A stretch of 64,000 nt of DNA from a bacterium (GCA_037140955.1 JBAXDL010000002.1:105846-169845), one strand, 5' to 3'; shown: positions 13,188 through 30,499, counted from the first letter of the stretch. The notes: a model not told the origin generated them from the sequence alone. Numbers and translations: made by a program.

Positions 13188-13228
13188 AAAAGAAAAAGGG
13201 CGCAGTCAATTTTTTGACTGCGCCCTTA
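13188..13228. terminator. bidirectional terminator (serves the minus-strand gamma-CA gene)
   Basis: 13-bp stem AGGGCGCAGTCAA/TTGACTGCGCCCT with a TTTTT loop, flanked by an A-run and a T-run, immediately 3' of the 13242 gene end. Confidence 0.55.
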
Positions 13229-13241: not shown

Positions 13242-13847
13242 TCAAATTGTTTCGTGATGCTTACGCCTCTCTTGGTATATCTTAACCAAATGCTTGTTCT
13301 TGTCCACAACTGTTTTGTTGAACCCTTTTTGTTGTTCATTAACCATAGGTAAGCTGTCGGCAATGGATTGACAATCAACTACCATACCTGATCGCACAAA
13401 ACGATTAGAGTCAACTATAACGTTTTCAACAATCGCACCATGTCCAATATAGCAATTTCTGCCAACAATCGAATTATGCACAATCGCATGAAAACCAACA
13501 AATGTCTTTTTACCAATGGCTGTTGGACCATGAATAGTTGCTCGATGAGCAATTGTACAATGAGATCCAATCAACACGGAATACTTGTGACCATGTTCGT
13601 CTTCGACATATTCATTGTGTAGTCCGTGAATAATCACAGAATCCTGAATGTTGGTACCCTTGCAAATCTTAAATGGCGAACCCTCATCAGCCCTAATTGA
13701 AACATGTGGACAGACTATCACGTGATCCTCCAATTCAACCTTGCCGGTTATTCGAGCCGAACGACTAATGTAGCAATTTTCATCGTTATAGCTTGGATTA
13801 CCGAAAAACTCATCATCGTAAAATACTACTCCCTTTTTTGATTGCAT
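13242..13847 (-). CDS. gamma-class carbonic anhydrase (Cam-type left-handed beta-helix) with intact catalytic residues
   Basis: Hexapeptide-repeat protein whose core aligns with M. thermophila Cam. SIRADEG matches Cam R59/D61/E62. NIQDS matches N73/Q75. The three Zn ligands H81 (IIHGLH) and H117/H122 (IAHRATIHGP) are present. SD GGGAGG lies 8 nt upstream. Confidence 0.8.
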   Translation of the reverse strand: MQSKKGVVFYDDEFFGNPSYNDENCYISRSARITGKVELEDHVIVCPHVSIRADEGSPFKICKGTNIQDSVIIHGLHNEYVEDEHGHKYSVLIGSHCTIAHRATIHGPTAIGKKTFVGFHAIVHNSIVGRNCYIGHGAIVENVIVDSNRFVRSGMVVDCQSIADSLPMVNEQQKGFNKTVVDKNKHLVKIYQERRKHHETI

Positions 13848-14037: not shown

Positions 14038-14078
14038 TACAAAAATAGACCCATCAAAAGATAGGTCTATTTTTCAAA
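14038..14078 (-). terminator. intrinsic terminator after the NuoCD-like gene
   Basis: 9-bp stem AAATAGACC/GGTCTATTT with flanking A- and T-runs, 15 nt downstream of the 14093 stop. Confidence 0.45.
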
Positions 14079-14092: not shown

Positions 14093-15688
14093 CTATAAGT
14101 CAGTTCCCGAATATGAAAGATTTAAGCTTTTGTTGATCAGTGGAAAGTCAGGCACGATGTTTCCTGGTCCCATGATTCCAAACAAAGCCCAATTGCAAAA
14201 TGATGGATCACGCGGAAAGCATCTTTCAATCACACAATTTTTAATTTCCAAAGCACAAAGAACTTCACCTCTCCATGACTCAACTGCGCCAAGAGCAAAA
14301 CCATCTTTGATCTGGAAAGTTGATTTCGTTTCACCCTCTGGAATGTTTTTGACAATTTTTTCAATCAATTCCATTGTTGCATCAAGTTCATTGATGCGCA
14401 TGAGATATCTGGCATGCACATCACCTTTCTGCGCACTAGCAACAACAACTGGAAATTTTTCGTAGCAAGCATAGGCATGATCTCTTCTGGTGTCACGATC
14501 AAGGCCTGAGGCGCGAGCTGCTATTCCAAGTGCGCCCAATGCCTTTGCCGCATCAAGTGGAAGCACACCGGTTGTTTGCAAGCGATCAAGAAAACCATCT
14601 GACTCTAAAGCCAATGTCACTATTTTTTTCATTTCAATCCAAGCCTCATTTCCAATTGTAAAAAGTTTTTCTAACTTCTCAGGTGATAAATCAAATTCAA
14701 CTCCGCCGGGAATTATATATCCCCTCCAAAAACGATTGCCAAAAACTTCATCAGAAACACGCATTAATCTTTCCTTGATGCGAAAACCATTGGCAGCAAT
14801 GAAACTATATCCAGTTCCCATTCCTCCAATGTTGGCCAAGTCATGAATATGCATGGTCAACCTTTCAAGTTCGCAAACAAGCATGCGTAGCATTTGAGCC
14901 CTCTGCGAAACAACTGTTCCAGCAATTTTTTCAGCCGCTTGAACATATGCTAGAGCGTGAGCTGCTGCCATGTCGCCAGAAAGTCTTTCCACAAACGGAA
15001 GAGCATTTTCCACGATCTTCCCTTCAAGTAATTTTTCAACGCCCTTGTGGGTGAAAAATAATTTTCCTTCCAAGGTTAAGATTCTTTCGCCAGCAACATT
15101 GAAACGAAAATGCCCTGGTTCAATTATTCCAGCATGAATAGGGCCCACTGGAATCTCATAGATTCCCTCTCCAGAGACATGATGCATTGGATATTCCACA
15201 TTGGCTTTTTCCATTTTCTTGTTCCAGGCAAAATCTTTTCTGAGTGGAAACTGACCAACTGGCACATTTTCATGTGAAACCAAGCGACGCGGATCAGGAT
15301 GTCCCTCGGCAATGATGCCAAACATATCTTGCATATAGCGCTCATACCAATGTGCGGCCATTATTGTAGCTGTTAGTGCTGGATATTTTGGATTATTTTC
15401 TGGCAAAGCAGCAGAAAGATTCAGCCACTCGCCTGTTTTATCATTTCCAAAAATAACATGCACGCCAAAAGATTCATTTTCTTTTCGATCATCACTGCCG
15501 TACAAAAGCGACAAAAACAAACCATGAGCCTCAACAAGAACAGTTGAAATTCTTGCAAAATCACTGCTTTCAACAGTTGCCACGGTTGTGTCATTTTTAA
15601 TTTCAACAACTTTTATTTCCGGAAAAATTTTAATTATTTCTGATATTTTCATTTGATTATTTTGAGATATAAATAATATTTCTAGCAA
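14093..15688 (-). CDS. NuoC-NuoD fusion-like / group-4 [NiFe]-hydrogenase large-subunit-like protein lacking all Ni-Fe cysteine ligands (Ehr-type large subunit)
   Basis: N-terminal 30 kDa (NuoC/HycE N-term) region. The conserved GPIHAGIIEPGHFRF block. ERLSGDMAAAHALAY sits where hydrogenases have RxCGxCxxxHALA, so both Cys are replaced. The C-terminal DPSFCN does not match DPCxxC. The likely true start is the ATG at 15652 (MKISEII), 4 nt after the upstream stop. Confidence 0.75.
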   Translation of the reverse strand: MLEILFISQNNQMKISEIIKIFPEIKVVEIKNDTTVATVESSDFARISTVLVEAHGLFLSLLYGSDDRKENESFGVHVIFGNDKTGEWLNLSAALPENNPKYPALTATIMAAHWYERYMQDMFGIIAEGHPDPRRLVSHENVPVGQFPLRKDFAWNKKMEKANVEYPMHHVSGEGIYEIPVGPIHAGIIEPGHFRFNVAGERILTLEGKLFFTHKGVEKLLEGKIVENALPFVERLSGDMAAAHALAYVQAAEKIAGTVVSQRAQMLRMLVCELERLTMHIHDLANIGGMGTGYSFIAANGFRIKERLMRVSDEVFGNRFWRGYIIPGGVEFDLSPEKLEKLFTIGNEAWIEMKKIVTLALESDGFLDRLQTTGVLPLDAAKALGALGIAARASGLDRDTRRDHAYACYEKFPVVVASAQKGDVHARYLMRINELDATMELIEKIVKNIPEGETKSTFQIKDGFALGAVESWRGEVLCALEIKNCVIERCFPRDPSFCNWALFGIMGPGNIVPDFPLINKSLNLSYSGTDL

Positions 15689-17132
15689 TCAAATCAATAA
15701 ATTTGACTCCATTTGGAGATGACAAAAAGAAAGTCAAGCAAATGATAATAACCAATTCCAAGGTCATCACTGAATGCGTAATATTCCATTTTTCCCTCTT
15801 TTGGTTTTGCTCATTTTCATTTCCACCAAAAAACATTCCAATGGTTGATCTCAGCATGGCAAAAGAAATCACACTGAGTGCTATCATGATCAAAATAGAA
15901 AGAAATGGATGCAGCAAGAAAGCATTAGCAAAAATCATATATTCACTAACAAACAAAACTGAAGGCGGCAAAGCGATGATAGACAAAATTCCCAGCAAGA
16001 ATAATATTGCAGTAAACGGAGCTCTCTTCAACAATCCTTGAACTTTGGATGTTTGCGTTGTCTGATAGTTTGTCAGAATCTCGCCAGCTCCAAAAAACAA
16101 CATTGATTTTGAAAAAGTGTGTCCAATCATATGCACCACAGCAGCAATAGCACCCACTGGAGAAAGAGCAAGTGCAAAAGTTATAATCCCCATATGCTCA
16201 ACACTAGAATAGGCTAGCATACGCTTGTAGTTGCTCTGCACCAACATCATGAAAGCAGGAATGACAATTGAAATAAAACCAAAAAACAAAAACAAGTGTC
16301 CAGTCCACTCATTGCTGCCAAGAGAAAGATCAGTAATGAACCTGAAACGAATAATTCCATATAGCGCAATGTTCAAAAGAATACCAGAGAAAAGTCCAGA
16401 AATTGGAGATGGTGCATTACTGTGCGCATCAGGAAGCCAAATGTGCATTGGAACCAAACCAAGTTTTGCACCAAAGCCAACAAAAATGAAAACAAAAGCC
16501 CATCTGATGATGTCGATTGAAATCAAATGTGCATTTTGAGCAAGTGCTGTCAGGGTGAAAATGTCACCACCAGTGACACCACCAATTGAGGCGCCATAAC
16601 CAAACAACAAAATTCCCAACAAACCAAGACTGATGCCTGTTGAACAAATAATAATATATTTCCAAGCAGCTTCAGCTGAAGTCTTCTTGCGATACAATCC
16701 AACCAAAAATGTTGATGACAAGGTTGTGCCTTCGAGTGCCATCCAGAGCAAGAGCGAATTGTTTGCAATCACAGTAAGCAGCATACACAAAGCAAAAACA
16801 TGAAACAAAGAAAAATACAATTTCAAGTCTCCAATTGAAATTATTTTTTCCTCATGTTCATGTCCAATATACCTGACACTGACAACAGCAGCACTGATAT
16901 ATAAAAAGGCCACCAATGAAACCATCAGAGCTGAAAAATTGTCCATCAGCCAAACAGAATTTGACCAAGAGCTGCTCATTTGAAAAAGCACAGGGAGCGA
17001 CATGGAAAAAACTGAAAGTCCGCCAACAATAGCAAGGATTGTGGTGCTCAAAAGAATCTGCTTTTTTTTGTTTGAAAAAATTGCAACAGCGGCGGCAGCA
17101 AGAACAGTGATGATTGTGATGATTGGTGTCAT
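15657..17132 (-). CDS. NuoM/NuoN/HyfF/MrpD-family antiporter-like membrane subunit
   Basis: Polytopic membrane protein with the family signature PMHIWLPDAHSNAPSPISGL. Confidence 0.75.
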   Translation of the reverse strand: MTPIITIITVLAAAAVAIFSNKKKQILLSTTILAIVGGLSVFSMSLPVLFQMSSSWSNSVWLMDNFSALMVSLVAFLYISAAVVSVRYIGHEHEEKIISIGDLKLYFSLFHVFALCMLLTVIANNSLLLWMALEGTTLSSTFLVGLYRKKTSAEAAWKYIIICSTGISLGLLGILLFGYGASIGGVTGGDIFTLTALAQNAHLISIDIIRWAFVFIFVGFGAKLGLVPMHIWLPDAHSNAPSPISGLFSGILLNIALYGIIRFRFITDLSLGSNEWTGHLFLFFGFISIVIPAFMMLVQSNYKRMLAYSSVEHMGIITFALALSPVGAIAAVVHMIGHTFSKSMLFFGAGEILTNYQTTQTSKVQGLLKRAPFTAILFLLGILSIIALPPSVLFVSEYMIFANAFLLHPFLSILIMIALSVISFAMLRSTIGMFFGGNENEQNQKREKWNITHSVMTLELVIIICLTFFLSSPNGVKFIDLIARNIIYISK

Positions 17133-17156: not shown

Positions 17157-18755
17157 TTATTCAGTTAAATTACGCAAATCCTCAGTGTCAGAGCTTCCAT
17201 AAAATTCTCTAATTCTTGAACCTAAAATGGACAAAATAAACGCACTAGCAACAATAATAACAAAAACTCCAAGTTCAATCAGCAGTGGCAATGACTTGAC
17301 CGTCACCAAAGTGAAAACAGTCAGACCATTTTCCATGATTAGCAATCCAAGGATTTGTGAGAAGATGTTGCGATGCACAATCATCGTTGCAAGTCCAAGT
17401 CCAATCAAAGCAATTGAGGCATATAGCAAAGTGTCAAATTCTACCATACCAAGAATTGGAGTATGCTTCATAATATAGAAAGTTGCACCCAAAATTAGCA
17501 CCACCACGAAATAACTAGTTGCTGGCCTCAAAAATGATGGTGAGCTGATCAATTCCTTATGTTTTCTTTGTGCATATTTGATCACTATTGGCACAAGGAT
17601 TGTCTTGATCAAAATTGTTACCAAGGCAAACAACCACAAATGCTTCATTTCACTTTTTTCCACCACAAAAGAAAGTCCAAAGGCAATACCAGCAATGCAG
17701 AATGAAGAAAATGCATAGTATCGAAGCATGACTTGAGCCCTAGCTCTACCAAAAATTAAAATCACAAAAAACACTGAAAGTGCAGCAAAAATGGTGTGAT
17801 ATTGAATGTCAACTTTCACAAAAGATGCAAAGAGCGCAATCAGCATGCCAAACATGGCAGTGAAAAATGCAATCGACATAAACTCTTGCATGCGATAAAA
17901 TCTCATCTTCACTACTGTTGATTCAAGTAGTGCGAGCAATCCCATACAAACCAAAACCTTTGCAATTGCAAAGAAAATCGCAAGCACAAGTGCACCAATT
18001 CCAAAACTACTTGCAGCAATAACGGTTCCAGGAAAAATAAAATTAGAAAGCAAAATTGCAAAAATAGTCATTTTCAGAGCACTGGCATATTCCAACATTG
18101 CCAAATATGGACCAGAATATTCCAAGATCATGGCTTCATGCACCATCGTCAGCTCAAGATGTGTTGCTGGGTTATCCACTGGATATCTAGCATTTTCTGC
18201 CAATGTCACTAAGAAAAAAGCAAACACCGAAAGCAGTAGATATGGATGAGCGAAAACAAGTGGTTGCCCAACAAGTCCATCAATGGCAAATGTTCCACCA
18301 ACGAAACTCATAGCAGCAAAAACCATGATGATTATTGGTTCAACCAAAGCAGCGATCGTCATTTCGCGACTAGAACCCATCCCACCAAAAGCACTGCCTG
18401 GATCAAGACCACCAAGCACCAAGAAAATAGAGCCTATCATCAAAATTCCAGCCACAACCAAAAAATCACTAGCACTTGCCAACTTCCCTCCAACAAACAT
18501 CAATGGCAAAATAAAAGCCAAGGAAAGTGTTGTTGAAAGAACCACATATGGAACAGCGCGGAAAACCCAAGAAGCACTGCTCGAAATCACCATTTGCTTC
18601 TTGAGCAAAGTCGCAAAAGTGTAATATGGCAAAAAAGGAGAAGCGCCCTGCCGCCCTTGCAAACGCGCTTTGCAAAATCGCACCAAGCCGCTGGCAAAAG
18701 GTGCTATCAATAACACGAAAATTCCTTGTAATAATGTTGCTAGAATTGGATTCAT
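17157..18755 (-). CDS. NuoH/HycD-like membrane subunit fused to a C-terminal NuoK/HyfE/MrpC-like segment
   Basis: N-terminal KARLQGRQG...LLKK matches the NuoH/HycD R-x-Q-x-R-x-GP motif. The C-terminal part has a NuoK-like TM helix with a buried Glu (ILGLLIMENGLTVF). At 532 aa it is much longer than NuoH alone. Confidence 0.65.
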   Translation of the reverse strand: MNPILATLLQGIFVLLIAPFASGLVRFCKARLQGRQGASPFLPYYTFATLLKKQMVISSSASWVFRAVPYVVLSTTLSLAFILPLMFVGGKLASASDFLVVAGILMIGSIFLVLGGLDPGSAFGGMGSSREMTIAALVEPIIIMVFAAMSFVGGTFAIDGLVGQPLVFAHPYLLLSVFAFFLVTLAENARYPVDNPATHLELTMVHEAMILEYSGPYLAMLEYASALKMTIFAILLSNFIFPGTVIAASSFGIGALVLAIFFAIAKVLVCMGLLALLESTVVKMRFYRMQEFMSIAFFTAMFGMLIALFASFVKVDIQYHTIFAALSVFFVILIFGRARAQVMLRYYAFSSFCIAGIAFGLSFVVEKSEMKHLWLFALVTILIKTILVPIVIKYAQRKHKELISSPSFLRPATSYFVVVLILGATFYIMKHTPILGMVEFDTLLYASIALIGLGLATMIVHRNIFSQILGLLIMENGLTVFTLVTVKSLPLLIELGVFVIIVASAFILSILGSRIREFYGSSDTEDLRNLTE

Positions 18756-18811
18756 AAGGCTTATAATTTATGCGCTTAATTTCTTACAGATAAAAATAAA
18801 AGTGAGTGGAG

Positions 18812-18906
18812 CTATTTCACTCTTTGGCCAATAGCCGGCGACAGCGGCTTCTTGAGCTTTTGGATATTGAGCATTTCATCCAAAAGCGTGCCAAAGAGTG
18901 AAATAG
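18812..18906. repeat. nested inverted repeat (17-bp outer arms CTATTTCACTCTTTGGC/GCCAAAGAGTGAAATAG, 10-bp inner stem GCTTTTGGAT/ATCCAAAAGC) in the intercistronic gap
   Basis: Perfect complementarity seen directly. GC-richer than the surroundings. Lies inside the presumptive operon transcript between the NuoL-like and NuoH-like genes. Confidence 0.6.
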
Positions 18907-18946
18907 TGAAACGAACAATTCATTATTGCTAAAGCAAAAAAACAGT

Positions 18947-20950
18947 CTATAAAACAACAAGCAATGTCACTATCAATGTTCCGAGCACAAACAATAGATA
19001 ATATTGAATGCGACCACCTTGAATCATTTTCATCCTTTCGGCAACAAAATTCAATATACCAGCAATTGGTTCATAGATCTTATCCTTCCAAATAGAACTA
19101 AATGACAAAGTTAACACATATTTTCGAACCCAGGGATTTGTCTCAACAACTGGTATTGATGACAAAACCTTGTCACGACCTAGCAATTGCAAAAAGAAAA
19201 AACGAATTGGTCCAGAAAAAGCAGTTCCAGAATATTGCATGGTTGCGTCTATCGCTTGACCACAATCCCAAGTCTTATAAATTCTTTGATCATCTTTTTT
19301 AACAACAAATTTATACAAAGCATAAACGCCAAGCAAAAATACAGCTGGCAATAAAAATACCAAAACAGAAGAAAGGTTGCTATTTACTAGCGAAGATGAA
19401 ACTGAAGGAGCAGTCGCAAAAAGTTCGCTGCGCACGCTGAGCCATTTGATTATTGTTTTGGCAAAAATTCCCAAAACAATCACACCCAATCCAAGTGTCA
19501 TAATTGGCGCACTCAACATGTAGTCTGTTTTCTCAGCTCTTCTTTCAACATGCTTTGACTTTGAAAGACCAAGCATTGAGATACCAAAAATTTTGATCAT
19601 AGCAAACACAGCCAACCCACTAACCAATCCGATCGTTGCAATGCTCAGCACAAGCACGATCATGGTTGTTGAATCCAAAAGAGAATTATGTAAAACATTG
19701 ATCACATTTTGAACCAATCCCCATTCCCCATAAAATGTTCCAAATGGAGGAAGTGGCAATGAAGACAGAATTACAAGCAAAAATGCAAAAGAAAAAATTG
19801 GCATGATGTTGGCCAAACCTCCCATGACCTCAATTCTTTTGGAATGAAAACGATTGATCAGCACACCACTGCTCAAGAACAAGCCAGTCTTGAACAAGGC
19901 ATGATTGATGGCATGAAAAATCGCAAACACCACAAAAGCATTTGAAATCAAGACAACACTGTCCGCGCGACTTTGACTCAAAATATAAATCGCGATTCCA
20001 AGAATAGTAAAAATGATTCCCATGTTTTCAATACTACTATAGGCAAAAGCTCTTTTCACATCTCTTTCAATGACAGCATACAAAACACCCACCACCGCTG
20101 AAAGCAAACCAAGAATGATCACAACCAATCCCGCCCAAGCTGGCAAATTTGTCAAAGAAAAAACTATTTTAATAAAACCAAACACCGCAACTTTTAGCAT
20201 CAGTCCGCTCATCAAAGCTGAAATGTTGCTTGGTGCTTGAGGATGAGCCTCCGGAAGCCAAACATGAAATGGCACAAGTCCAGCCTTTGAACCAAAGCCA
20301 AACAAAAACAACACAAAAACCAAGCCACTTAGCATTGGAGAAAGATTTGAACTAGCCACCGCAATGCCAGAAAAATCAGAAAATATTGACCCCCAACCAA
20401 GAATCAGAAAACCACCCAAGATTGCACTTGCGCCAAGATGGGTCATAATGAAATACAAAAAAGCAGCCCGAATTGATTCTGGCGACTTGTCGATCATAAC
20501 CAAGAAAAAAGAAGCAATCGACATCACCTCCCAAAAAAACAAAAATCCAAAAGCATTATTTGAAAACAAAACTCCTTGCATACCAAGCACAAAAAAAGCG
20601 GTCAGAAATTGCACAACGGAAGGATTGTATGATTCTTCATACAATTCCAAATATCTGGTTGCATAGACACCAACCAAACAGGAAACACCAGCAATAAGCG
20701 TGAAAAATATTCCAGACAAGAGATTGATCGAAGGAGCAAAATTGAAAAGCCAACTCCAAGAACCAAGCAAAATGCTTTTTGTGGAAAAATTAAACAAATA
20801 TAGCATTCCAAAAATAAAACCAACCAAATTTGTGAGCACAAAAAGTTGAGCTGATTTTCTCCATTGACCACCAATAATAGCCAAGCCACCAGCAAAAATA
20901 AGACCCAAGAAATAAATAAAAATACCGTATGCAATAAAATCTATGGTCAT
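18947..20950 (-). CDS. NuoL/HyfB/MrpA-family antiporter-like membrane subunit (667 aa)
   Basis: Polytopic membrane protein. PFHVWLPEAHPQAPSNISALMSG signature. Size matches HyfB/NuoL. Confidence 0.75.
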   Translation of the reverse strand: MTIDFIAYGIFIYFLGLIFAGGLAIIGGQWRKSAQLFVLTNLVGFIFGMLYLFNFSTKSILLGSWSWLFNFAPSINLLSGIFFTLIAGVSCLVGVYATRYLELYEESYNPSVVQFLTAFFVLGMQGVLFSNNAFGFLFFWEVMSIASFFLVMIDKSPESIRAAFLYFIMTHLGASAILGGFLILGWGSIFSDFSGIAVASSNLSPMLSGLVFVLFLFGFGSKAGLVPFHVWLPEAHPQAPSNISALMSGLMLKVAVFGFIKIVFSLTNLPAWAGLVVIILGLLSAVVGVLYAVIERDVKRAFAYSSIENMGIIFTILGIAIYILSQSRADSVVLISNAFVVFAIFHAINHALFKTGLFLSSGVLINRFHSKRIEVMGGLANIMPIFSFAFLLVILSSLPLPPFGTFYGEWGLVQNVINVLHNSLLDSTTMIVLVLSIATIGLVSGLAVFAMIKIFGISMLGLSKSKHVERRAEKTDYMLSAPIMTLGLGVIVLGIFAKTIIKWLSVRSELFATAPSVSSSLVNSNLSSVLVFLLPAVFLLGVYALYKFVVKKDDQRIYKTWDCGQAIDATMQYSGTAFSGPIRFFFLQLLGRDKVLSSIPVVETNPWVRKYVLTLSFSSIWKDKIYEPIAGILNFVAERMKMIQGGRIQYYLLFVLGTLIVTLLVVL

Positions 20951-20959: not shown

Positions 20960-21499
20960 TTAAGAATTTTTCTGATTAATAGCATTTAAAACACCTTTTA
21001 ATATTGCAGTTGGAGAAGGTGGATCGCCAGCAATGCAAATATCAACAGGAATGACTTTGTCCAAACCACCAACCACAGCATAGGAATCCTTCCAAATGCC
21101 GCCATCAATAGCACCATCGCCAAGAGCGACCACGATACAGGGACTTGGAGCGGCTTCATAGGTTGTTTTCACGGCGTTTTCCAGGTTTCTGGTTATTGGT
21201 CCTGACACAAACAGCATGTCAGCATGCCTCGGAGACGCCACAAAAGAAAGACCAAAACGGTCAATGTCATAATATGCGTTGTTCAGAGCTGTAAATTCAA
21301 TTTCTTCTCCGTTAGTAGATCCTCCATCCACAGCCCGGATGCGCAAAGATCTGCCTCCATAGAGCCTTTTTATGTTTTCTTTAAGTTCTTTGCCAACAGC
21401 TTCAAATTCAGCATCAGTGGCATCAGGGCGTAAAGTTTTTTCATCAATTGTAACCTTTGGACCAAATAATAAGACCTTGAGTAATTGGAAAAATTTCAT
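20960..21499 (-). CDS. NuoB/HycG-like small subunit lacking all four [4Fe-4S] cysteine ligands (Ehr-type small subunit)
   Basis: Aligns with NuoB (DRFGLSFVASPRHADMLFVSGPIT; VIPVDICIAGDPPSP). CCxxE is replaced by GG/ST. GSCAxxGG is replaced by GDGAIDGG. GCPP is replaced by GDPP. Confidence 0.75.
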   Translation of the reverse strand: MKFFQLLKVLLFGPKVTIDEKTLRPDATDAEFEAVGKELKENIKRLYGGRSLRIRAVDGGSTNGEEIEFTALNNAYYDIDRFGLSFVASPRHADMLFVSGPITRNLENAVKTTYEAAPSPCIVVALGDGAIDGGIWKDSYAVVGGLDKVIPVDICIAGDPPSPTAILKGVLNAINQKNS

Positions 21500-21577
21500 A
21501 AGAATATGTCAGATTTTCATTTTTACTAGTAATAATATCAATTTTGCGCCACATTTTTCTTTTTGGCAAGTGTTTGC

Positions 21578-22018
21578 CTAATCGATCGTCACACCATGTC
21601 TGCTGTGGTGCTTTTTGGCAACACGAATACGCGCTGTTTCTTTTTCAATTGCAGCGGCAACTTTTGCATATTCCAGCTCATTCATTGAGATTTTTTGCTT
21701 GCTAATTTCTTGAGCGCGGTCCCTTGCCTGCTGGGCACGCTTCACATCAATTTCAACTGCAGCTTCAGCTGTGTCAGCAAGTACAACCAAAACATTGTCA
21801 TTAAACTCAATAAAACCACCAGAAACGACCAATAATTTTTCCTTGCCACCAACTTTAAACATAATCTCACCAGCCTTGAGGCCAGCAATATATGAACAAT
21901 GATCGGGCATGATGGTCACTTCCCCATCAGCAACAGGCAAAGTTATTTGCTCTACCTCCTTTTCAAGCACGGTGCGTTCAGGAGTAACAATCTTAAAATT
22001 AATTTTACTTGTAGACAT
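21578..22018 (-). CDS. atpC: F1 ATP synthase epsilon subunit
   Basis: MSTSKINFKIVTPERTVLEKEV... is a typical epsilon N-terminal beta-sandwich plus C-terminal helices. The ATG is at 22018. The upstream ORF-track extension is unsupported. Confidence 0.85.
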   Translation of the reverse strand: MSTSKINFKIVTPERTVLEKEVEQITLPVADGEVTIMPDHCSYIAGLKAGEIMFKVGGKEKLLVVSGGFIEFNDNVLVVLADTAEAAVEIDVKRAQQARDRAQEISKQKISMNELEYAKVAAAIEKETARIRVAKKHHSRHGVTID

Positions 22019-22184
22019 AATATTAATTTCAAATCCAAATATCAAAATCTCAATTTCAAATAAATGACTCAAATCCAAATATCAAAATTTAGATTTTAAA
22101 ATTTTGGATTTTATTTGAAATTTTGATTTTAGATTTTAGATTTAAAAACAAATTTAAACAATAAATACTTTTAGGAATGTTAAT

Positions 22185-23567
<1,383 letters not shown>

Positions 23568-23608
23568 TTAATTAGAATAATTATACCTATTTAAAAGATT
23601 CTTATAAT

Positions 23609-23722
23609 TTCGAATTTCCAATTTCTAATTTTGAATCAATACTTAATTTCCAAATTTCTAATGTTTCAAACATTCACTCATTCGGACTTGATTCAAAATT
23701 CAAAATTCGAAATTCAAAATTG
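23609..23722. repeat. AT-rich atp-spacer repeat family, copy 1 (TCGAATTTCCAATTTCTAATTTTGAATCAAT...AATTTCTAATG...TTCAAAATTCGAAATTCAAAATT)
   Basis: Shares long near-identical stretches with 27838-27976 and 29971-30084. Confidence 0.6.
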
Positions 23723-23786
23723 TCTTCAAACTTCCCATCTGTCTACACCTTTCTTGAACCATAAACAGAATCAGAACTTCAAACTA

Positions 23787-23815
23787 TTGACAAAATGATG
23801 ATTTAGGTGTATTAT
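23787..23815 (+). promoter_or_regulatory. near-consensus sigma-70 promoter TTGACA-N17-TATTAT
   Basis: -35 at 23787-23792, -10 at 23810-23815. Drives the small plus-strand ORF at 23875. Confidence 0.5.
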
Positions 23816-23874
23816 ATATGGTTGATGATTCATTGAATCATTACAACAAAATTCTAACACAAAAGGAGTTAGAC

Positions 23875-24045
23875 ATGGAAAAGTTGAAAATTTTTGAAGG
23901 AAAGATCTCCAACCTAGAAACAGATGTCAACACCTGGTTATCTGAAAATCCAGATATCAAGATAATTGAAAGGAAATTTTCCACAGAAGTTGATCAGTCA
24001 TTCACAAGCAGGTTTGTATATGTAGCAATATTTTATACAAACTAA
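23875..24045 (+). CDS. small hypothetical protein (56 aa), antisense-oriented inside the atp operon
   Basis: ATG at 23875 preceded by AAGGAG at 6-nt spacing. The ORF-track start at 23818 overlaps the promoter -10 and is less likely. No recognisable family. Confidence 0.5.
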   Translation: MEKLKIFEGKISNLETDVNTWLSENPDIKIIERKFSTEVDQSFTSRFVYVAIFYTN

Positions 24046-24061
24046 TCAAAGAGTTATCCAG

Positions 24062-24102
24062 CCACCCTTTCGCAAGATTCTTTGCGATGGGTGGTTTTTT
24101 TT
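24062..24102 (+). terminator. intrinsic terminator
   Basis: Stem CCACCC..TTTCGCAA / TTGCGA..GGGTGG followed by T8. Confidence 0.6.
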
Positions 24103-24133
24103 ATGCGCCTATTTTTTCAAAGATACTATCAGA

Positions 24134-24173
24134 GTTCAATCCTGGATTCCTGATCAAGTCAGGAATGACAAGG
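24134..24173 (+). repeat. hairpin repeat family copy A (GTTCAATCCTGGATTCC-[CTGATCAAGTCAG]-GGAATGACAAGG)
   Basis: Conserved flanks shared with 27387-27425 and, in reverse complement, 27305-27340. The inner stem differs but stays self-complementary. Confidence 0.7.
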
Positions 24174-24195
24174 TTTTGAATTCTGAATTATATTT

Positions 24196-24224
24196 TTGAC
24201 TTTATTATTGTTCACTGATATATT
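24196..24224 (+). promoter_or_regulatory. sigma-70-like promoter TTGACT-N17-TATATT
   Basis: -35 at 24196-24201, -10 at 24219-24224. About 155-nt leader before the ORF at 24386. Confidence 0.45.
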
Positions 24225-24385
24225 TCATTTACGATTTTAAATTCGATAAGGAGGTTTTTTGTTTGAAACATTTTTGTTCTTTTTTTTGAAACACTGTCCA
24301 CCATTTTGCAACCTCATCACAATCGATTGAATTTGTATGACATTGTTCATGCAAAATAAAATCAAAAGACAAAGGAGAAACAAAA

Positions 24386-24559
24386 ATGAGAAAACTGTTT
24401 TTTGCAATCATTGCCATCATCATTTCAATCACCCCAGCCATTGCACATGAAATTGGCATGCAGCACGACCATCATGACAATTGGGAAACAGTCTCTGTTT
24501 TTGCCATTATTGCCTTGATAATTCTCGGCAGAGTAATTTACAAAAAAATGGAAAAATAA
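24386..24559 (+). CDS. small His-rich membrane/secreted protein (57 aa), not in the ORF track
   Basis: ATG at 24386 with AAGGAG 8 nt upstream. Sequence MRKLFFAIIAIIISITPAIA-HEIGMQHDHHDNWE-TVSVFAIIALIILGRVIYKKMEK (signal/TM, His-rich stretch, C-terminal TM). Followed by a strong terminator. Confidence 0.5.
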   Translation: MRKLFFAIIAIIISITPAIAHEIGMQHDHHDNWETVSVFAIIALIILGRVIYKKMEK

Positions 24560-24586
24560 AATACAATTCCAAACATCTCTACTATT

Positions 24587-24622
24587 GCGCCCACACAAAT
24601 CATTGTGTTGGGCGCGTTTTTT
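24587..24622 (+). terminator. intrinsic terminator
   Basis: GC-rich stem GCGCCCACACAA/TTGTGTTGGGCGC followed by GTTTTTT. Confidence 0.65.
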
Positions 24623-24659
24623 AATTTTCAAAAGTACTTATTTTCTACGAATTACAAAT

Positions 24660-25619
24660 TTATTCCAATGCTGCTCGTCCTGCAGAAATCTCAGCAATTT
24701 CCTGGGTAATCTTTCCTTGTCTGATCTGATTGTATGCCAAGGTCAAATCGTCGCTCATTTCTTTTGCCGCATCAGTTGCATTTCTCATGGCCATCATGCG
24801 AGCTGATTGCTCAGATGCTTGCGATTCAAGCACGCCATGGAAAAGCTGCATCTCAATCAAACGTGGAATAATAAATTCCAAAACCTCACTTGCACTTGGC
24901 TCAATCTTGTATTCAACTACTGGCTCCTCTAATCCATATTCTTTGGCAATAACATCCATTTCAGCAATTTGTTTTTCAATATCAATCTTGGAAATTGGCA
25001 ACACTTGGCGAATGCGAGTTTGCTGATTTACTGCTGAAATATAATCAGTATAAATCATCACAACTTTGTCATATTTTTTTGCCAAATAATCATCCATCAC
25101 AATTTTCGAAAGAGGTTTGATGTCGACAACTGTTGCAAACTTTCCACCATCTGGAAAAGCAGCAATAATTTCTTTTTGCATTTTCCTGACAATATTTCCA
25201 CCCTTTTTTCCAACCACAATAAAATCAACTTTCAAGTCTTCATTCTTAATCTTAGACTCAATTTTCTTTTTTCCAATTCTGTTTATTTTCAATTTTTCAG
25301 GATGCAAGATTTCTTCCTTTATTTTCTTGGCAACTTGCGTATTGAATGATCCACAAAGACCACGATTGGAAGTTATTGCAATCATCAAAACACTTTTCAC
25401 TTCACGCACCTCCAAAAATCCATAATTTTCTGATGACTCAAATGCCCTAGCAAGATTGGTTAGCACACTCCAAGCAGCATGAGCATAGGCCCTAATCCCA
25501 AGCACGCTTGCAACAGCTCTGCGCATTTTGGCAGCAGAAACCATCTCCATTGCTTTGGTGATTTTTCTTGTGCTATTTATCGACCGAATGCGTCGTTTTA
25601 TATCTAGTGAACTGGCCAT
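24660..25619 (-). CDS. atpG: F1 ATP synthase gamma subunit
   Basis: Full-length gamma similarity (MASSLDIKRRIRSINSTRKITKAMEMVSAAKMRRA...). Confidence 0.9.
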   Translation of the reverse strand: MASSLDIKRRIRSINSTRKITKAMEMVSAAKMRRAVASVLGIRAYAHAAWSVLTNLARAFESSENYGFLEVREVKSVLMIAITSNRGLCGSFNTQVAKKIKEEILHPEKLKINRIGKKKIESKIKNEDLKVDFIVVGKKGGNIVRKMQKEIIAAFPDGGKFATVVDIKPLSKIVMDDYLAKKYDKVVMIYTDYISAVNQQTRIRQVLPISKIDIEKQIAEMDVIAKEYGLEEPVVEYKIEPSASEVLEFIIPRLIEMQLFHGVLESQASEQSARMMAMRNATDAAKEMSDDLTLAYNQIRQGKITQEIAEISAGRAALE

Positions 25620-25656
25620 AGTATTTAATATTTTCTGAATTTATCCAGATTCCAAT

Positions 25657-25691
25657 TTTAAATTTTAAGTTTTAAATTTTAAATTAATTTT
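25657..25691. repeat. 36-nt AT-rich spacer repeat (TTTTAAATTTTAAGTTTTAAATTTTAAATTAATTTT), copy 1
   Basis: Exact repeat of 28485-28520. Both lie in atp intercistronic spacers. Confidence 0.7.
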
Positions 25692-25748
25692 CAAATATTT
25701 AAATATTTTTTATATTCTATTTAAAATTTTTAATTTAAAATTCTGCGT

Positions 25749-27257
25749 TTACGCGGTCTGATATATTTCTTTAAATTCCTTTATTGCCTTTTCCAATGCT
25801 GCCACAACCTCATCTGACAATTCTTTCTTTTCACCAATAAGTGTGATCAAATCTTTTGCATTTGAATCTAGATATTTGTGAAAATCAGCTTCCCAACTTC
25901 TGATGTTTTCAACTTCCACATCATCAACAAAACCATTGGTAAGAGCATACAAAATTGCAACTTGATGCTCAACAATCATTGGCTCATATTGCCCTTGCTT
26001 CAAAATCTCAACTGACCTTCTTCCTCTTTCGATTTGATTTCTGGTTTTTTCATCAAGATCAGATCCAAATTGCGCAAAAGCTTCCAATTCGCGAAATTGT
26101 GCCAATTCAAGTCTCATTTTTCCAGCCACTTTTTTCATGGCCTTGATTTGAGCAGATCCACCCACACGAGAAACAGAGAGACCAACATTCACAGCAGGAC
26201 GAATACCCTTGTAAAACAAATCTGATTCCAAGAAAATTTGACCATCAGTAATAGAAATAACATTGGTTGGGATGTAAGCTGAAACATCACCCGCCTGTGT
26301 TTCAATAATTGGAAGTGCTGTCATTGAGCCGCCCCCAAAATCAGCGTTTAATTTTGCACTTCTTTCCAAAAGACGAGAATGCAAATAAAAAACATCTCCA
26401 GGATATGCTTCGCGTCCTGGTGGTCGCTTCAAGATCAAGGAAATTTGACGATATGCCCAAGCGTGACGAGAAAGATCATCAAAAACAATTAGCACATCCT
26501 CTCCCTTGTCCATGAAATATTCTCCCAGCGCGCAACCTGAATATGGAGAAATATAGGAAAGAGCTGAAGATTCTGAAGCACCTGCAACCACAATGGTGGT
26601 ATATTCCATGGCTCCACGCTTTTCAAGCTCACCCAAAATTCTGGCAATCTTTGATTCTTTTTGTCCAATTGCAACATAAATGCATTTCATGTTTTGGCCT
26701 TTTTGATTGATGATAGTGTCAATTGCAATCGCTGTTTTTCCAGTTTGACGATCACCAATAATAAGCTCGCGTTGTCCTCGTCCAATTGGAATCATCGCAT
26801 CAATTGCTTTTATGCCAGTTTGCACAGGCTGATGAACTGACTTACGAGTAATCACGCCCGGTGCAATTTTTTCCACTGGATAAAATTTGTCAGCCACAAT
26901 ATCACCCTTTCCATCAACTGGAATTCCCAAAGGGTTGATCACGCGTCCAATCATAGCATCAGAAACTGGAATAGAGAGAACATTGCCGGTTGCCTTCACA
27001 ACATCTCCTTCTTTGATTCCAATATAATTTCCAAGCACAATGACACCAACTCGATCCTCTTCAAGATTAAGTGCTACACCGATTTCTCCATTAGGAAATT
27101 CAACCATTTCTGATGCCATCAAATCTGAAAGTCCTGAAACGCGAGCAACTCCATCGCCAATTTCAATAACGCTGCCAACCTTTTCAGTAGTGGTTTCGGT
27201 TCTGAATCCTTCAATCTGCTTTTTGAGTTGTTCTATTATGTAGTCCTTGTTAGCCAT
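25749..27257 (-). CDS. atpA: F1 ATP synthase alpha subunit
   Basis: Walker A GDRQTGKT. Full-length alpha similarity. Confidence 0.95.
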
Positions 27258-27304
27258 ATTATTGATTCTACTAATTACAAATTATTACAAATTTACAAAT
27301 GTTT

Positions 27305-27340
27305 CGTGTCATTCCGGGCTCGACCCGGAATCCAGGATTA
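27305..27340 (-). repeat. hairpin repeat family copy C (reverse orientation; inner stem GGGCTCGACCC)
   Basis: Reverse complement reads AATCCTGGATTCC-GGGTCGAGCCC-GGAATGACACG. Forms an inverted pair with copy B 36 nt away. Confidence 0.7.
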
Positions 27341-27386
27341 GCACATCTCACCTTTTATTAAAAAAATCTTTATTTTATAGCCTAAG

Positions 27387-27425
27387 TTCAAATCCTGGAT
27401 TCCCGCCTCCGCGGGAATGACAAGG
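27387..27425 (+). repeat. hairpin repeat family copy B (inner stem CGCCTCCGCG)
   Basis: GTTCAAATCCTGGATTCC-CGCCTCCGCG-GGAATGACAAGG. Abuts the atpH stop codon at 27426. Confidence 0.7.
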
Positions 27426-27827
27426 TTATTTTTCTAAAACTTTTTTTAATTTCCTGAGCTGCCCTGCCACACTTCCATCGATCACTTCGTCGCCTACTCT
27501 TATTATTATTCCGCCATGAATTCTTTCATTTATGATACTTGTAATTTTAACTTTTTCAGCCTTATACTTTAATTTGATAAAATTTTCAATTTCTTTGTAT
27601 TTTGCATCTTGTATTTTGTATTTTGTGACTACTTCAGCCAAAACAATTCCATGTGCTGCATTATATAGTTCTGCAAATTTTTCCATAACCCTCTCTGCAT
27701 TCTTGAGTTGCCCATCATTTTTGAGCTGCTCGGCGAATTTCTTCACAATCACCAAAACTTCCTGCTCAGATTTTCCATCTGTCAGATCAAAAAGTGTTTG
27801 AGAATATTGTTTGATACTAACTTTCAT
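27426..27827 (-). CDS. atpH: F1 ATP synthase delta subunit (short form)
   Basis: Position between atpF and atpA. C-terminal IDGSVAGQLRKL is typical of delta/OSCP. Confidence 0.75.
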   Translation of the reverse strand: MKVSIKQYSQTLFDLTDGKSEQEVLVIVKKFAEQLKNDGQLKNAERVMEKFAELYNAAHGIVLAEVVTKYKIQDAKYKEIENFIKLKYKAEKVKITSIINERIHGGIIIRVGDEVIDGSVAGQLRKLKKVLEK

Positions 27828-27837
27828 AAGTTTAATT

Positions 27838-27976
27838 TTGAATTTCCAATTTCGAATTTTGAATCAATCATTAATTAATGAATTTCTAATGCTTTAAACG
27901 TTCTGTCATTCTGATTTCATTTGAAATTTTTGCTCCAAGCTTATCCTTTGGGGACAAAATTCAGACTTCGAAATTC
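27838..27976. repeat. AT-rich atp-spacer repeat family, copy 2
   Basis: TTGAATTTCCAATTTCGAATTTTGAATCAATCATTAATTAATGAATTTCTAATGCTTTAAACGTT ... TTCAGACTTCGAAATT. Shares long blocks with 23609-23722 and 29971-30084. Confidence 0.6.
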
Positions 27977-28468
27977 CTATTCATTTATCACTTTTTCTAT
28001 AACACTCTTATCTTTTTCTAAATCTAATTTTGTATCAATAATCTTACTCGTTGCAGCAATGACTAGTTCGGCGATTTGCCCTTTCACTTCCTGCATCATC
28101 TGATTCTTTTCAAGTTCAATTTTCTTGGCAGAATCTGACAGAATTTTTTCAGCTTGATTCTTCGCTTCTCCAATAATTTCTTCTTTATTCTTCACTGCCA
28201 CTGCTTCAGCATTAGCCACAATTTCTTGGGCTGCCTTTCGGGCCTCAATCAAAACAGTCTTTTCCTTTTCTTCAATTTCCAAAAGCTTCTTGCCAGCATT
28301 TTGGGCATTCTCAATGCCCTTTTCAATCTTCTCACTTCTCTCAGTCATCAATTTTAGCATTGGACCATAGGCAAATTTCTTGAGTACAAAAAAAACAATT
28401 GCAAAGTTTACCAATTGCGCAAGAATAAGTTTGATGTCGATGTGAAATGTTTTGATAAGTTCTTCCAT
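27977..28468 (-). CDS. atpF: Fo ATP synthase subunit b
   Basis: Single N-terminal TM helix followed by a long charged helix. Position in the operon. Confidence 0.85.
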   Translation of the reverse strand: MEELIKTFHIDIKLILAQLVNFAIVFFVLKKFAYGPMLKLMTERSEKIEKGIENAQNAGKKLLEIEEKEKTVLIEARKAAQEIVANAEAVAVKNKEEIIGEAKNQAEKILSDSAKKIELEKNQMMQEVKGQIAELVIAATSKIIDTKLDLEKDKSVIEKVINE

Positions 28469-28484
28469 AATTTTAATGCTCCAG

Positions 28485-28520
28485 TTTTAAATTTTAAGTT
28501 TTAAATTTTAAATTAATTTT
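28485..28520. repeat. 36-nt AT-rich spacer repeat, copy 2
   Basis: Identical to 25657-25691. Confidence 0.7.
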
Positions 28521-28641
28521 AAATTATCAAATGTTTAAAATTTAAGCATTTTGATTTGATTTAAAACTTATAATTTAAAATTTAAAATTATTTTTCAAAT
28601 AATCTCATTTTGCCTCACTCCGAAGAATGAGACATTTGAAA

Positions 28642-28902
<261 letters not shown>

Positions 28903-29093
28903 TTAGGGAGAATGGATATTGTCAACAAATTATTAATTAATTTTTAATTCACAATTTTTAATTTTTAAATAATTTCTCAATTCATAAATGATTTCCCTCA
29001 AAGGATAAACTTGAAGCAAAAAACATTTGAAAATTTTGATTTATTTGTAAAAATTAAAAATTTAAAATTAAAAATTCCAATACTTTGCATTGT

Positions 29094-29933
29094 CTAGTGT
29101 TCCTCATTGGTCGTGGCAATTGACATAAATGCCAGCGTCAAAATTGCAAAAACCAAAGCTTGCACAATTCCCACAATCAATTCCAAAAACATAAACGGCA
29201 ATGGCAAAATAAAAGCGGAAATCGCCATCATCGACGCCAGCAAAACCTCTCCAGCAAAAATGTTTCCAAAAAGTCGCAGCGACAGTGATGCAATTTTTGC
29301 AATCTCTCCCACAATCTCAATAAGTCCCACAAAGATCTTAATTGGATTTACCATCAAAATAGTTGGGTCTTTTTTTATTTTCTTGGGAATTGCCAAAATA
29401 GCTTTCAGATTAACAAACTTGTTGAAATGATTCCAGCCGCCAATCATAATGACTCCAAAAATATGCGAAATGACAACTGAAAAAAGTGCAATCGCAAGAG
29501 TGGTGTTAAGATCTGCTGTGGCACCGCGAAGCAGTGGCACAAAAACTTTTCCGTGCTCACCTGTTTCCACAAAACCTATTGTTCCAACTCCAGGAAGAAG
29601 CCCCATCCAATTACTAACCAAAATAAAAAGGAAAAGCGCCAAAACAATTGGCAAAAATTTCAAGGTTTTTTTGCGACCACCGGTAACACTGTCAGCCATC
29701 ACAAGTGCTTGCTCAAGAATTATTTCAAAAATATTTTGCAAAGCTGACATCTTTTTTGTTTTCTTTGCAGCCTTTTTTCCAACCATCACAAAAAAAGTCA
29801 CCAAAATAATCACCGTGATCCAACTCATGATCAAGGAATTGGTGATAGTAAAAGTTCCTAGATGCAAAATAGGCTCAGCGAAAAGAGTGCTTTCATGTTG
29901 TATTTCTGAATTGTTTGTATTTTCAGTAGACAT
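29094..29933 (-). CDS. atpB: Fo ATP synthase subunit a
   Basis: LSLRLFGNIFAGE motif with the essential Arg. Polytopic. Confidence 0.9.
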   Translation of the reverse strand: MSTENTNNSEIQHESTLFAEPILHLGTFTITNSLIMSWITVIILVTFFVMVGKKAAKKTKKMSALQNIFEIILEQALVMADSVTGGRKKTLKFLPIVLALFLFILVSNWMGLLPGVGTIGFVETGEHGKVFVPLLRGATADLNTTLAIALFSVVISHIFGVIMIGGWNHFNKFVNLKAILAIPKKIKKDPTILMVNPIKIFVGLIEIVGEIAKIASLSLRLFGNIFAGEVLLASMMAISAFILPLPFMFLELIVGIVQALVFAILTLAFMSIATTNEEH

Positions 29934-29970
29934 CTTTGTAAATTAAAATCTGTAAAATGTTCACTACTCA

Positions 29971-30084
29971 AATTTCGAATTTCCAATTTTGAATTTTGAA
30001 TGAATTTCCAATGATTGAATTTTGAATGTTTCAAGCATTGCATCATTAAGATTTTATTCGAAATTCAAAATTCAGACTTCGAAA
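29971..30084. repeat. AT-rich atp-spacer repeat family, copy 3
   Basis: AATTTCGAATTTCCAATTTTGAATTTTGAATGAATTTCCAATG...TTCGAAATTCAAAATTCAGACTTCGAAATT. Confidence 0.6.
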
Positions 30085-30327
30085 TTATTTACTATTACCA
30101 TTATCCATTTCTCTCAGCCCAATTCTTATTATCATTACTATGGAGACAGCAAAGGCCGCTGCCACGCTAAACAAAAATGCCCAGGGAGTTGTTTGAAATG
30201 TTTTGTCTAGATATTTTCCAATCAAGACAGCAATCAAGACCGGTCCGACAATCCAAGAGCTTAGCCTCAAAAAAAGGATTGCTCCGGGTTGCCACCAACT
30301 CACGTTTTTATTTTGCTTATCCTCCAT
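30085..30327 (-). CDS. atpZ: AtpZ/AtpI-family small membrane protein preceding atpB
   Basis: 80 aa, two TM helices. Pattern WWQPGAILFLRLSSWIVGPVLIAVLIGKYLDKTFQTTPW resembles the ATPase_gene1 family. First gene of the operon. Confidence 0.55.
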   Translation of the reverse strand: MEDKQNKNVSWWQPGAILFLRLSSWIVGPVLIAVLIGKYLDKTFQTTPWAFLFSVAAAFAVSIVMIIRIGLREMDNGNSK

Positions 30328-30446: not shown

Positions 30447-30495
30447 CGAAAAAAGAAAAAGCCACCTAATGAAATTTATTCACTAAGTGGCTTTT
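30447..30495 (-). terminator. intrinsic terminator after the sigma factor gene
   Basis: Hairpin GCCACCTAATGAAATTTATTCACTAAGTGGC. On the minus strand it is followed by TTTTTCTTTTTT. Confidence 0.55.
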
Positions 30496-30499
30496 GGCC

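Follow-up and report, generated by a model that had tools for sequence, protein, structure and literature searches.

We describe here the junction between the F-type ATP synthase (atp) operon and the genes of a cofactor-less, complex-I-like membrane complex (Ehr) in a 64,000 nt stretch of bacterial DNA (GCA_037140955.1 JBAXDL010000002.1:105846-169845), referred to throughout as the window. The first ehr gene, ehrB, begins 78 nt past atpC on the same strand, the spacer between them has no recognizable intrinsic terminator and carries a conserved promoter-like block, and the same atp-ehr adjacency recurs in many species of the Candidate Phyla Radiation (CPR, or Patescibacteria). We consider this account of the regulatory anatomy, which is read from the sequence, and of the conserved atp-ehr linkage to be probably correct. 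A further proposal, in which Ehr is coupled to carbonic anhydrases (CAs) whose genes often lie beside it, is a tentative hypothesis. The host is an ultra-small CPR bacterium near Moraniibacteriota. Homologues of ehrB number in the thousands at 67-84% identity, with named sources in Moran-, Uhr- or Falkowbacteria or Parcubacteria. The comparison set used here consists of 80 species-representative loci encoding an ehrB relative (L001-L080).

A short spacer without an intrinsic terminator separates atpC and ehrB

The atpC gene (F1 epsilon subunit; PF02823, PF00401) occupies positions 21578..22018 on the minus strand, and ehrB, coding for a NuoB/HycG/MbhJ-like small subunit (PF01058, 4e-24), occupies positions 20960..21499 on the same strand. 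With an in-frame TGA 12 nt 5' of it, the ehrB ATG is the earliest start available, and the same methionine starts 22 homologues, so that the spacer bounded by the atpC stop (21578) and the ehrB start (21499) extends exactly from 21500 to 21577. The 78 nt junction is identical in two independent assemblies.

The spacer is essentially unstructured. Its sole stem is a 5 bp GGCAA/TTGCC hairpin at 21565..21578 on the minus strand, in which GGCAA (21578-21574) pairs with TTGCC (21569-21565) across a 4 nt loop at -6.1 kcal/mol; the 5' arm starts at the final base of the atpC stop codon, the 3' arm overlaps the -35 hexamer described below, and the A-rich sequence AAAAAGAAAAA follows directly 3' of the stem. 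The spacer as a whole folds at -6.4 kcal/mol (z = +0.40), which is no better than shuffled sequence. Intrinsic terminators were sought by a consensus scan of the window and by an RNAfold-based scan for a hairpin plus T-tract, taken down to dG <= -5, and we required of a terminator a hairpin rich in G+C, with a stability of at least about -8 kcal/mol and a U-tract directly 3' of it. Neither scan finds one on the minus strand of the spacer, where the only stem is too weak and AAAAAGAAAAA stands in the place of the U-tract.

This absence is meaningful because the organism has textbook terminators elsewhere. The real terminators of the window range from -15 to -25 kcal/mol, and strong ones close many units, including those on the minus strand after a gamma-CA gene (13195..13228, -25.3 kcal/mol), after ehrCD (14044..14071, -19.8 kcal/mol) and after a sigma-factor gene (30456..30496, -23.1 kcal/mol), with further examples of about -22 kcal/mol at 32190-32229 and 24059-24097. 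A first-pass annotation of this DNA had given the 78 nt same-strand distance between the atpC stop and the NuoB-like start, had noted only the 5 bp stem and the A-rich sequence after it, and had suggested terminator prediction on the minus strand as a check; the coordinates, the stem and the result of both scans bear it out. It had also held that every other operon boundary in the window has an obvious terminator, which is true of many unit ends but not of several other same-strand junctions of 70-200 nt, at which a strict scan confined to intergenic DNA finds none (an earlier permissive scan was uninformative within coding sequence). The 78 nt spacer is also shorter than each of the spacers within the atp operon (129-230 nt), and the missing terminator taken alone is an ordinary observation of operon structure.

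A conserved promoter-like block lies directly upstream of ehrB

We looked for sigma-70-type promoters as -35 and -10 hexamers with a 16-18 nt spacing, and asked for conservation in orthologous intergenic regions. The spacer contains a putative promoter for ehr at 21541..21569 (minus strand), in which the -35 hexamer TTGCCA (21569-21564) and the -10 hexamer CAAAAT (21546-21541) are 17 nt apart and together match the consensus at nine of 12 positions; its position predicts an ehr start site near 21534. Both hexamers and their spacing are conserved in orthologous spacers: CTTGCCAA and CA[G/A]AAT are invariant at a fixed 17 nt spacing in nine genomes (the window, L001, L002, L004, L006-L009, and L011), and near variants of the block are present in L027, L035, and L075. 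The conserved block, CTTGCCAAAAA...CA(G/A)AAT, is located directly 5' of ehrB, and the remainder of the spacers is unalignable and very variable in length. In L004 and L075 the block is retained despite a clear terminator right after atpC (-16.2 and -10.3 kcal/mol, respectively), and because it persists behind these terminators, ehr is probably not dependent on the atp promoter. The simplest reading is that the block is a dedicated ehr promoter, and we think that it probably is.

Several other candidates in the spacer were set aside. An RNA element is ruled out, as the whole window has no Rfam match at the gathering score, the spacer searched at E <= 1 gave only a 16-bit chance match, and RNAalifold on nine orthologous spacers predicts a consensus structure with zero pairs in the block. 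The block is not a dispersed or generic repeat, since the window has about as many copies of CTTGCCAAAAA as chance would give (10 matches, with 7.8 expected). A second promoter match, TTGATA-17-GAAAAT, is not conserved in relatives. We also note a different arrangement in L016, L028, and L040 (at about 9940-10003), in which the atpC-ehrB gap is 27-29 nt: here a conserved TTGACT-16-TATAAC pair overlaps the stop codon of atpC, and only 7-8 nt separate the TATAAC -10 from the ATG of ehrB, a geometry like that of a leaderless mRNA.

The atp operon is split and ehr is probably transcribed in two ways

The F1Fo genes are ordered on the minus strand. A block at 24660..30327 contains atpI (30085-30327), atpB (29094-29933), atpE (the c-subunit, 28642-28863), atpF (27977-28468), atpH (27426-27827), atpA (25749-27257), and atpG (24660-25619), and is followed by a 1.1-kb insert (23559..24659) and then by atpD (F1 beta subunit, PF00006; 22185..23558) and atpC; the terminator after the sigma-factor gene sets the upstream limit of the atp unit. 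The insert contains two small open reading frames (ORFs) on the plus strand, each with a plus-strand terminator. One (23818-24045) is 75 residues long, has no match in Pfam, and is followed by the terminator at 24059-24097 (-22.2 kcal/mol), and the other (approximately 24383-24560) codes for a His-rich membrane peptide of about 59 residues and is followed by a terminator at 24586-24616 (-19.2 kcal/mol). The window and 14 Moranii-type loci have an enlarged interval of 650-2300 nt between atpG and atpD, compared with a compact 2-120 nt in 22 other loci, so the operon split is a derived feature of this lineage.

A single atpZBEFHAG-DC-ehr transcript, as the first-pass annotation had predicted, is unlikely, since the two opposite-strand genes with their strong terminators lie between atpG and atpD; with the operon divided in this way, transcription of atpDC must start separately from that of atpIBEFHAG. 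Since the sequence contains nothing that would halt transcription past atpC, read-through into ehrB is likely, and the likely transcription unit is atpDC together with ehr, with an additional internal promoter. We thus envisage that ehr is probably transcribed both from its own promoter and by read-through from atpDC. Among the relatives, the RNAfold-based scan finds no terminator after atpC in L001, L002, L006, L008, L014, L016, L022, L028, L040, L057, and L068.

The c-subunit is informative as to the ion that is likely to be used. The Na+ c-ring motif, as in Ilyobacter tartaricus, consists of a Gln in helix 1 and Glu-Ser/Thr-Thr in helix 2. This motif is absent from helices 1 and 2 of the window's c-subunit, the second of which has AFAEAVAIY, and the c-ring motif is of the H+ type.

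Two kinds of repeated sequence are found between the atp genes. Each of the unusually long spacers within the operon contains related AT-rich periodic repeats of the AAATTT/GAAATT type, in direct and inverted copies (22083-22162, 23606-23722, 25651-25743, 27831-27975, 28480-28602, 28937-29076, and 29968-30087); these are not present in the window's atpC-ehrB gap, and in relatives they are situated upstream of the ehr promoter. A palindromic element, TCCTGGATTCC-(hairpin)-GGAATGACA(A/C)G, has three copies in atp intergenic DNA, at 24140-24170 (plus strand), 27307-27337 (minus strand) and 27393-27426 (plus strand), with zero expected by chance, and a similar sequence is located upstream of atpD in L054.

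The atp-ehr neighborhood is conserved across CPR lineages

The atpC gene is upstream of ehrB and on the same strand in 47 of the 68 loci that have at least 1.5 kb 5' of ehrB, usually with the whole atp operon preceding it, and five shorter contigs have the same arrangement. The lineages concerned are Moranii-, Uhr-, and Falkowbacteria, one Peribacteria genome, one Minisyncoccota genome, and unclassified Patescibacteria. Six species have an atpC-ehrB gap of 10-38 nt and twenty have one of 70-450 nt; in all the others the gap measures 670-2940 nt and carries an inserted gene on the same strand. The gene order conserved across CPR is atp, an optional CA gene, ehrB-L-HK-M-CD, and an optional second position for a CA gene. 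Three Ehr loci from outside CPR (L078-L080) have a different gene order and neither atp nor CA neighbors, and the atp/CA association appears to be CPR-specific.

Because atp-ehr adjacency is conserved across CPR lineages, a functional linkage of the two is very likely. The first-pass annotation had proposed both a synteny survey of atpC neighbors, which has this outcome, and a functional coupling of the ATPase with the ion-translocating module, for example H+/Na+ interconversion. The coupling gains from the linkage in 47 of 68 loci and from the six very short gaps, but the example does not, since the Na+ motif is absent and the accessory genes are CAs, and we find no specific support for H+/Na+ interconversion. 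A separate observation is that L048 (Moraniibacteriota) has atpI-B-E-F directly upstream of ehrB (7826-9820) and a second atpB-E-F just downstream of ehrCD (18758-20356).

The Ehr module lacks metal ligands and retains charged antiporter residues

Downstream of ehrB on the minus strand are ehrL (18947..20950), for a HyfB/HycC/NuoL-like antiporter-like subunit; ehrHK (17157..18755), in which NuoH/HyfC-like and HyfE/NuoK-like parts are fused; ehrM (15657..17132), for a HyfF/MbhH/NuoM-like antiporter-like subunit; and ehrCD (14093..15688), for a NuoC+NuoD/HycE-like large subunit. The terminator after ehrCD has a stem of 12-15 bp followed by UUUUUG (z = -8.4). The cluster therefore brings together homologues of the group-4 hydrogenase large and small subunits with NuoH-like and antiporter-like subunits, and the NiFe-binding CxxC motifs of the large subunit are lost, as is characteristic of Ehr complexes. 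The best solved homologues are HycE (2e-68), MbhJ (1e-28), HycC (4e-45), and MbhH (2e-37).

The module is indeed cofactor-less, as had first been suggested. Relative to MbhJ and HycG, all four [4Fe-4S] cysteines of ehrB are replaced (CNGC by TNGE, and GCPP by GDPP, with the Cys of GAC also lost), such that the ligands of an N2-type cluster are missing, and relative to HycE all four NiFe cysteines of ehrCD are replaced (RVCGICGFAH by RLSGDMAAAH, and DPCYSC by NLSYSG). No gene for a NuoI/HyfH-like ferredoxin subunit or for an oxidoreductase is present in the cluster, and having no metal ligands and no ferredoxin-like subunit, the complex is presumably incapable of redox chemistry. The cluster also falls short of the seven-subunit Mrp set, with no Pfam match to the MrpB, E, F, or G families among the cluster ORFs scanned. 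The membrane part retains charged residues typical of antiporter-like subunits: ehrL has the TM5 Glu, TM7 Lys, TM8 Lys, and TM12 Glu, and ehrM has the TM5 Glu, TM7 Lys, and TM12 Glu, with the TM8 Lys changed to Asn (SGILLNIALYG). ehrB is 68-84% identical to 22 diverse aligned homologues, and 82 positions are invariant in the 23 sequences. Retention of these charged residues, together with the unusual conservation of the peripheral subunits, suggests that the complex is functional and probably still moves ions.

The 191 nt spacer between ehrL and ehrHK contains a nested perfect inverted repeat at 18790-18910 (minus strand) that has 17 bp arms, GCCAAAGAGTGAAATAG, and folds at -54.8 kcal/mol (z = -4.7). 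No further copies of it are found in the window. In L001 ehrL and ehrHK abut, and the window's spacer looks like a structured element inserted into the ehr operon.

Carbonic anhydrase genes recur beside ehr

In the window, a gene for a Cam/CcmM-type gamma-CA (13242..13847, minus strand) is located 245 nt past ehrCD, placing a CA next to a cluster that encodes PF00361 subunits, and the strong terminator at 13195..13228 ends the cluster. The protein matches the CcmM gamma-CA domain (1.7e-49), PDB 3KWC (9e-37), and Cam (1QRG; 3.5e-31), and retains the three Zn-binding His residues as well as the SIRADEG and NIQD motifs. A gamma-CA gene is also downstream of ehrCD in six of the other loci.

CA genes of other types occupy the same neighborhood in relatives. 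The genes found between atpC and ehrB are on the same strand and usually belong to one of two families, most often a CA-like one. This CsoSCA-like family, of about 340 residues, matches PF20686 with 31.6 bits (above the gathering score) and TIGR02701 with 7e-10, and when compared with PDB 2FGY it has the Cys-x-Asp-x-Arg (CxDxR) and His...Cys zinc site conserved, so that Zn ligands are kept here as in the gamma-CA. In a profile search, 23 loci have a member of this family, placed immediately 5' of ehrB or immediately 3' of ehrCD. A third type, Pro_CA_2 (PF20393, 1.2e-16), is downstream of ehrCD in five loci. In 56 loci the ehr genes have at least 1.3 kb of sequence to either side. A recognized CA-like gene directly adjoins ehr in 27 of these 56, and is on the same strand in all but one of the 27. 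If it is CA activity itself that is needed, one would expect such a pattern, with three distinct CA families (gamma-CA, a CsoSCA-like one of beta type, and Pro_CA_2) filling the two positions beside ehr.

The second family found between atpC and ehrB is shorter (about 205-260 residues), is on the same strand and in the same slot as the CA genes, and has the motifs C-[AS]-D-[CG]-D-Q (C-x-D-x-D) and H-x-P-C-G-A-A. This Uhrbacteria-type family is present in L013, L017, L019, L026, L029, L032, L033, L038, L044, L046, and L060. Its motifs led us to suspect a beta-CA, but it has no Pfam or NCBIfam match, and hhalign against the CsoSCA-like family gives a probability of 0.3%. Other small proteins with CxDxR/HxxC-like motifs are encoded beside ehr in L075 and L070.

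Other features of the window

The window also contains 23S and 5S rRNA genes at 40165-43445 (minus strand), and the stretch from 43446 to the next protein-coding gene is without a 16S gene. The match to the 23S model, itself 2925 nt, is 3067 nt long, which suggests one or more insertions. Three very large ORFs are also present, all on the minus strand, at 889-9090 (2733 residues), 53384-58387 (1667 residues), and 58552-63981 (1809 residues).

Discussion

The large subunits of CPR Ehr complexes form a monophyletic clade without metal-binding cysteines and are probably unable to interact with H2 (Jaffe et al. 2020, PMC7304191). The complex described here resembles this clade in its homologues of the group-4 [NiFe] hydrogenase large and small subunits, its NuoH-like and antiporter-like subunits, and its loss of the metal-binding cysteines, and what is added here are the conserved atp and CA neighborhoods and the dedicated promoter. 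ATP synthase or ATPase is nowhere in the main text of that paper (PMC7304191), and in other papers Ehr is either described as being of unknown function or proposed to pair with formate dehydrogenase in other phyla (PMC6349859). A 2024 perspective treats the role of ATP synthase in respiratory-chain-less Patescibacteria as open, and notes that the enzyme may run reversed for antiporters or pH homeostasis (PMC11665869). In the open-access full-text library that we searched, we found no paper that links CPR Ehr to either ATP synthase or carbonic anhydrase, and the conserved atp-Ehr-CA neighborhood appears to be undescribed.

The atp-ehr-CA data seem to fit a proton-coupled CO2-hydration module similar to DAB or Cup better than they fit Na+/H+ exchange. 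We infer that the ATPase and Ehr are co-expressed and share a single ion gradient, and protons are the likely shared currency because the c-subunit lacks the Na+ ligand set. One possible arrangement, which we put forward with reserve, is that the F1Fo ATPase, the metal-free Ehr complex, and a CA constitute a conserved three-part supermodule in Parcubacteria-type CPR, in which analogous CA types (gamma, CsoSCA-like, and Pro_CA_2) have taken over from one another on at least three occasions and CO2/HCO3- chemistry has come to occupy the place of the redox site. The F-ATPase would hydrolyze fermentative ATP and generate a proton gradient, and generation of a proton motive force by a reversed ATPase is plausible. 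Ehr and the CA would spend this gradient on vectorial conversion between CO2 and HCO3-, with the metal-free Ehr serving as a redox-free proton-translocating scaffold for the CA, as in DabAB and cyanobacterial NDH-1/CupA, and the product could go to inorganic-carbon supply or to pH control.

There are precedents for the parts of such an arrangement. DabAB/MpsAB and cyanobacterial NDH-1MS (CupA) each couple a proton channel of the NuoL/M type to a CA-like zinc protein, and a cation gradient is proposed to drive CO2 hydration in one direction. The window resembles these in having a PF00361 proton-translocating subunit encoded beside a Zn CA-like protein. It differs in that the CAs (gamma-CA, a compact CsoSCA-like protein, and Pro_CA_2) are not homologues of DabA or CupA, that in place of a single membrane subunit there is a complete complex-I-like module of five genes, and that linkage with an ATP synthase operon is a new feature. 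Plant, algal, and protist mitochondrial complex I also has gamma-CA subunits, which are often catalytically degenerate and are carried by a redox-active complex. The association of a gamma-CA-fold protein with a complex-I-type membrane arm is common to both, whereas the window's complex is redox-dead and its gamma-CA has all of its Zn ligands. E. coli formate hydrogenlyase/hydrogenase-4 (Hyc/Hyf; 7Z0S) and P. furiosus Mbh (6CFW) provide the best solved homologues of every subunit, and the NuoC-NuoD fusion and Hyf-like gene set are shared. Relative to Hyc/Hyf/Mbh, the window's complex is without the NiFe site, the proximal FeS cluster, the HyfA/HyfH ferredoxin-like subunits, and formate dehydrogenase, and it has HyfC and HyfE fused and the small-subunit gene placed first. 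The antiporter-like subunits are homologous to MrpA/MrpD of the Mrp Na+/H+ antiporter (7QRU, 6Z16), and a NuoK/MrpC-like part is present, but the cluster ORFs scanned include NuoB-, NuoCD-, and NuoH-like subunits rather than matches to the MrpB, E, F, or G families.

A number of points weigh against the interpretation that we favor. Promoter matches at nine of 12 positions are common in this AT-rich DNA (76 found, compared with 53 expected), so the argument for promoter function rests on conservation, and the conserved block could be a regulator-binding site instead. Read-through and the internal ehr start site are both predictions, and L004, L005, L021, L047, and L075 have a terminator after atpC, so that co-transcription is not a conserved requirement. 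On the CA side, the -19.8 kcal/mol terminator in the window lies between ehrCD and the gamma-CA gene, and the two need not be co-transcribed. There is no recognizable CA beside ehr in 19 of the 56 loci, and another 10 have only the second family of about 205-260 residues. The CA types all lack homology to DabA (PF10070) and CupA, their Pfam and NCBIfam matches being to gamma-CA/CcmM, CsoSCA_cat, and Pro_CA_2, and physical contact between the CA and Ehr is hypothetical.

Other explanations need to be considered. One long transcript could extend from atpI to ehr, with Ehr acting as an Mrp-like Na+/H+ antiporter that interconverts the F-ATPase gradient, and this would account for the gap without a terminator, the conserved atp-ehr adjacency, and antiporter-like subunits that are homologous to MrpA/MrpD and MbhH with their charged residues kept. 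We regard it as rather unlikely, however, as the atp operon is broken by two opposite-strand genes with terminators, the gap has a conserved promoter, the c-subunit is without the Na+ motif, the cluster ORFs scanned include very conserved NuoB-/NuoCD-like peripheral subunits instead of any Pfam match to MrpB, E, F, or G, and the recurrent accessory genes encode carbonic anhydrases rather than Mrp-specific subunits. If atp and ehr were simply independent units of unrelated function, with an inherited adjacency and a lineage-specific loss of the terminator that is of no consequence, then conservation of ehr's own promoter, the terminators after atpC in several relatives, and the roughly one-quarter of CPR loci in which ehr has no atp upstream would all be readily understood. 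Such independence is nonetheless improbable given that the adjacency holds between lineages in which ehrB is only about 60-70% identical and the other flanking genes differ, that six species have gaps as short as 10-38 nt, with scant room for separate control, and that the non-CPR Ehr loci L078-L080 are without both atp and CA neighbors.

It is also conceivable that Ehr is an energy-converting pump driven by a partner enzyme docked on the NuoB/NuoCD arm, and that it makes the proton motive force for ATP synthesis. The peripheral-arm subunits are highly conserved, other Ehr complexes have been proposed to pair with oxidoreductases such as formate dehydrogenase (PMC6349859), and the source of the gradient for ATP synthase in Patescibacteria that have no respiratory chain is an open question (PMC11665869). 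We give this explanation little credence, since no FeS or NiFe ligands are left and the cluster has neither a NuoI/HyfH-like ferredoxin subunit nor an oxidoreductase gene, such that there is no electron path, and since the sole recurrent partners are CAs, whose reaction provides no net energy unless there is a sink.

Coupling of the ATPase, Ehr, and a carbonic anhydrase through a shared proton gradient, tentative as it is, bears on a broader question, as an F-type ATP synthase is retained in almost every member of the Patescibacteria despite the lack of a respiratory chain, and the purpose of the enzyme is an acknowledged open question (PMC11665869). The physical joining of the atp operon to a cofactor-less complex-I-like module in many CPR species, very often together with a CA gene, makes this question testable. 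It would also provide a first candidate function for the CPR Ehr clade, and, if CA coupling is correct, would add a new and independently evolved ion-gradient-coupled carbonic anhydrase to DAB, Cup, and the gamma-CA of complex I. The supermodule would then give cells that lack an electron-transport chain either a use for the proton gradient of their ATP synthase or a contribution to it.

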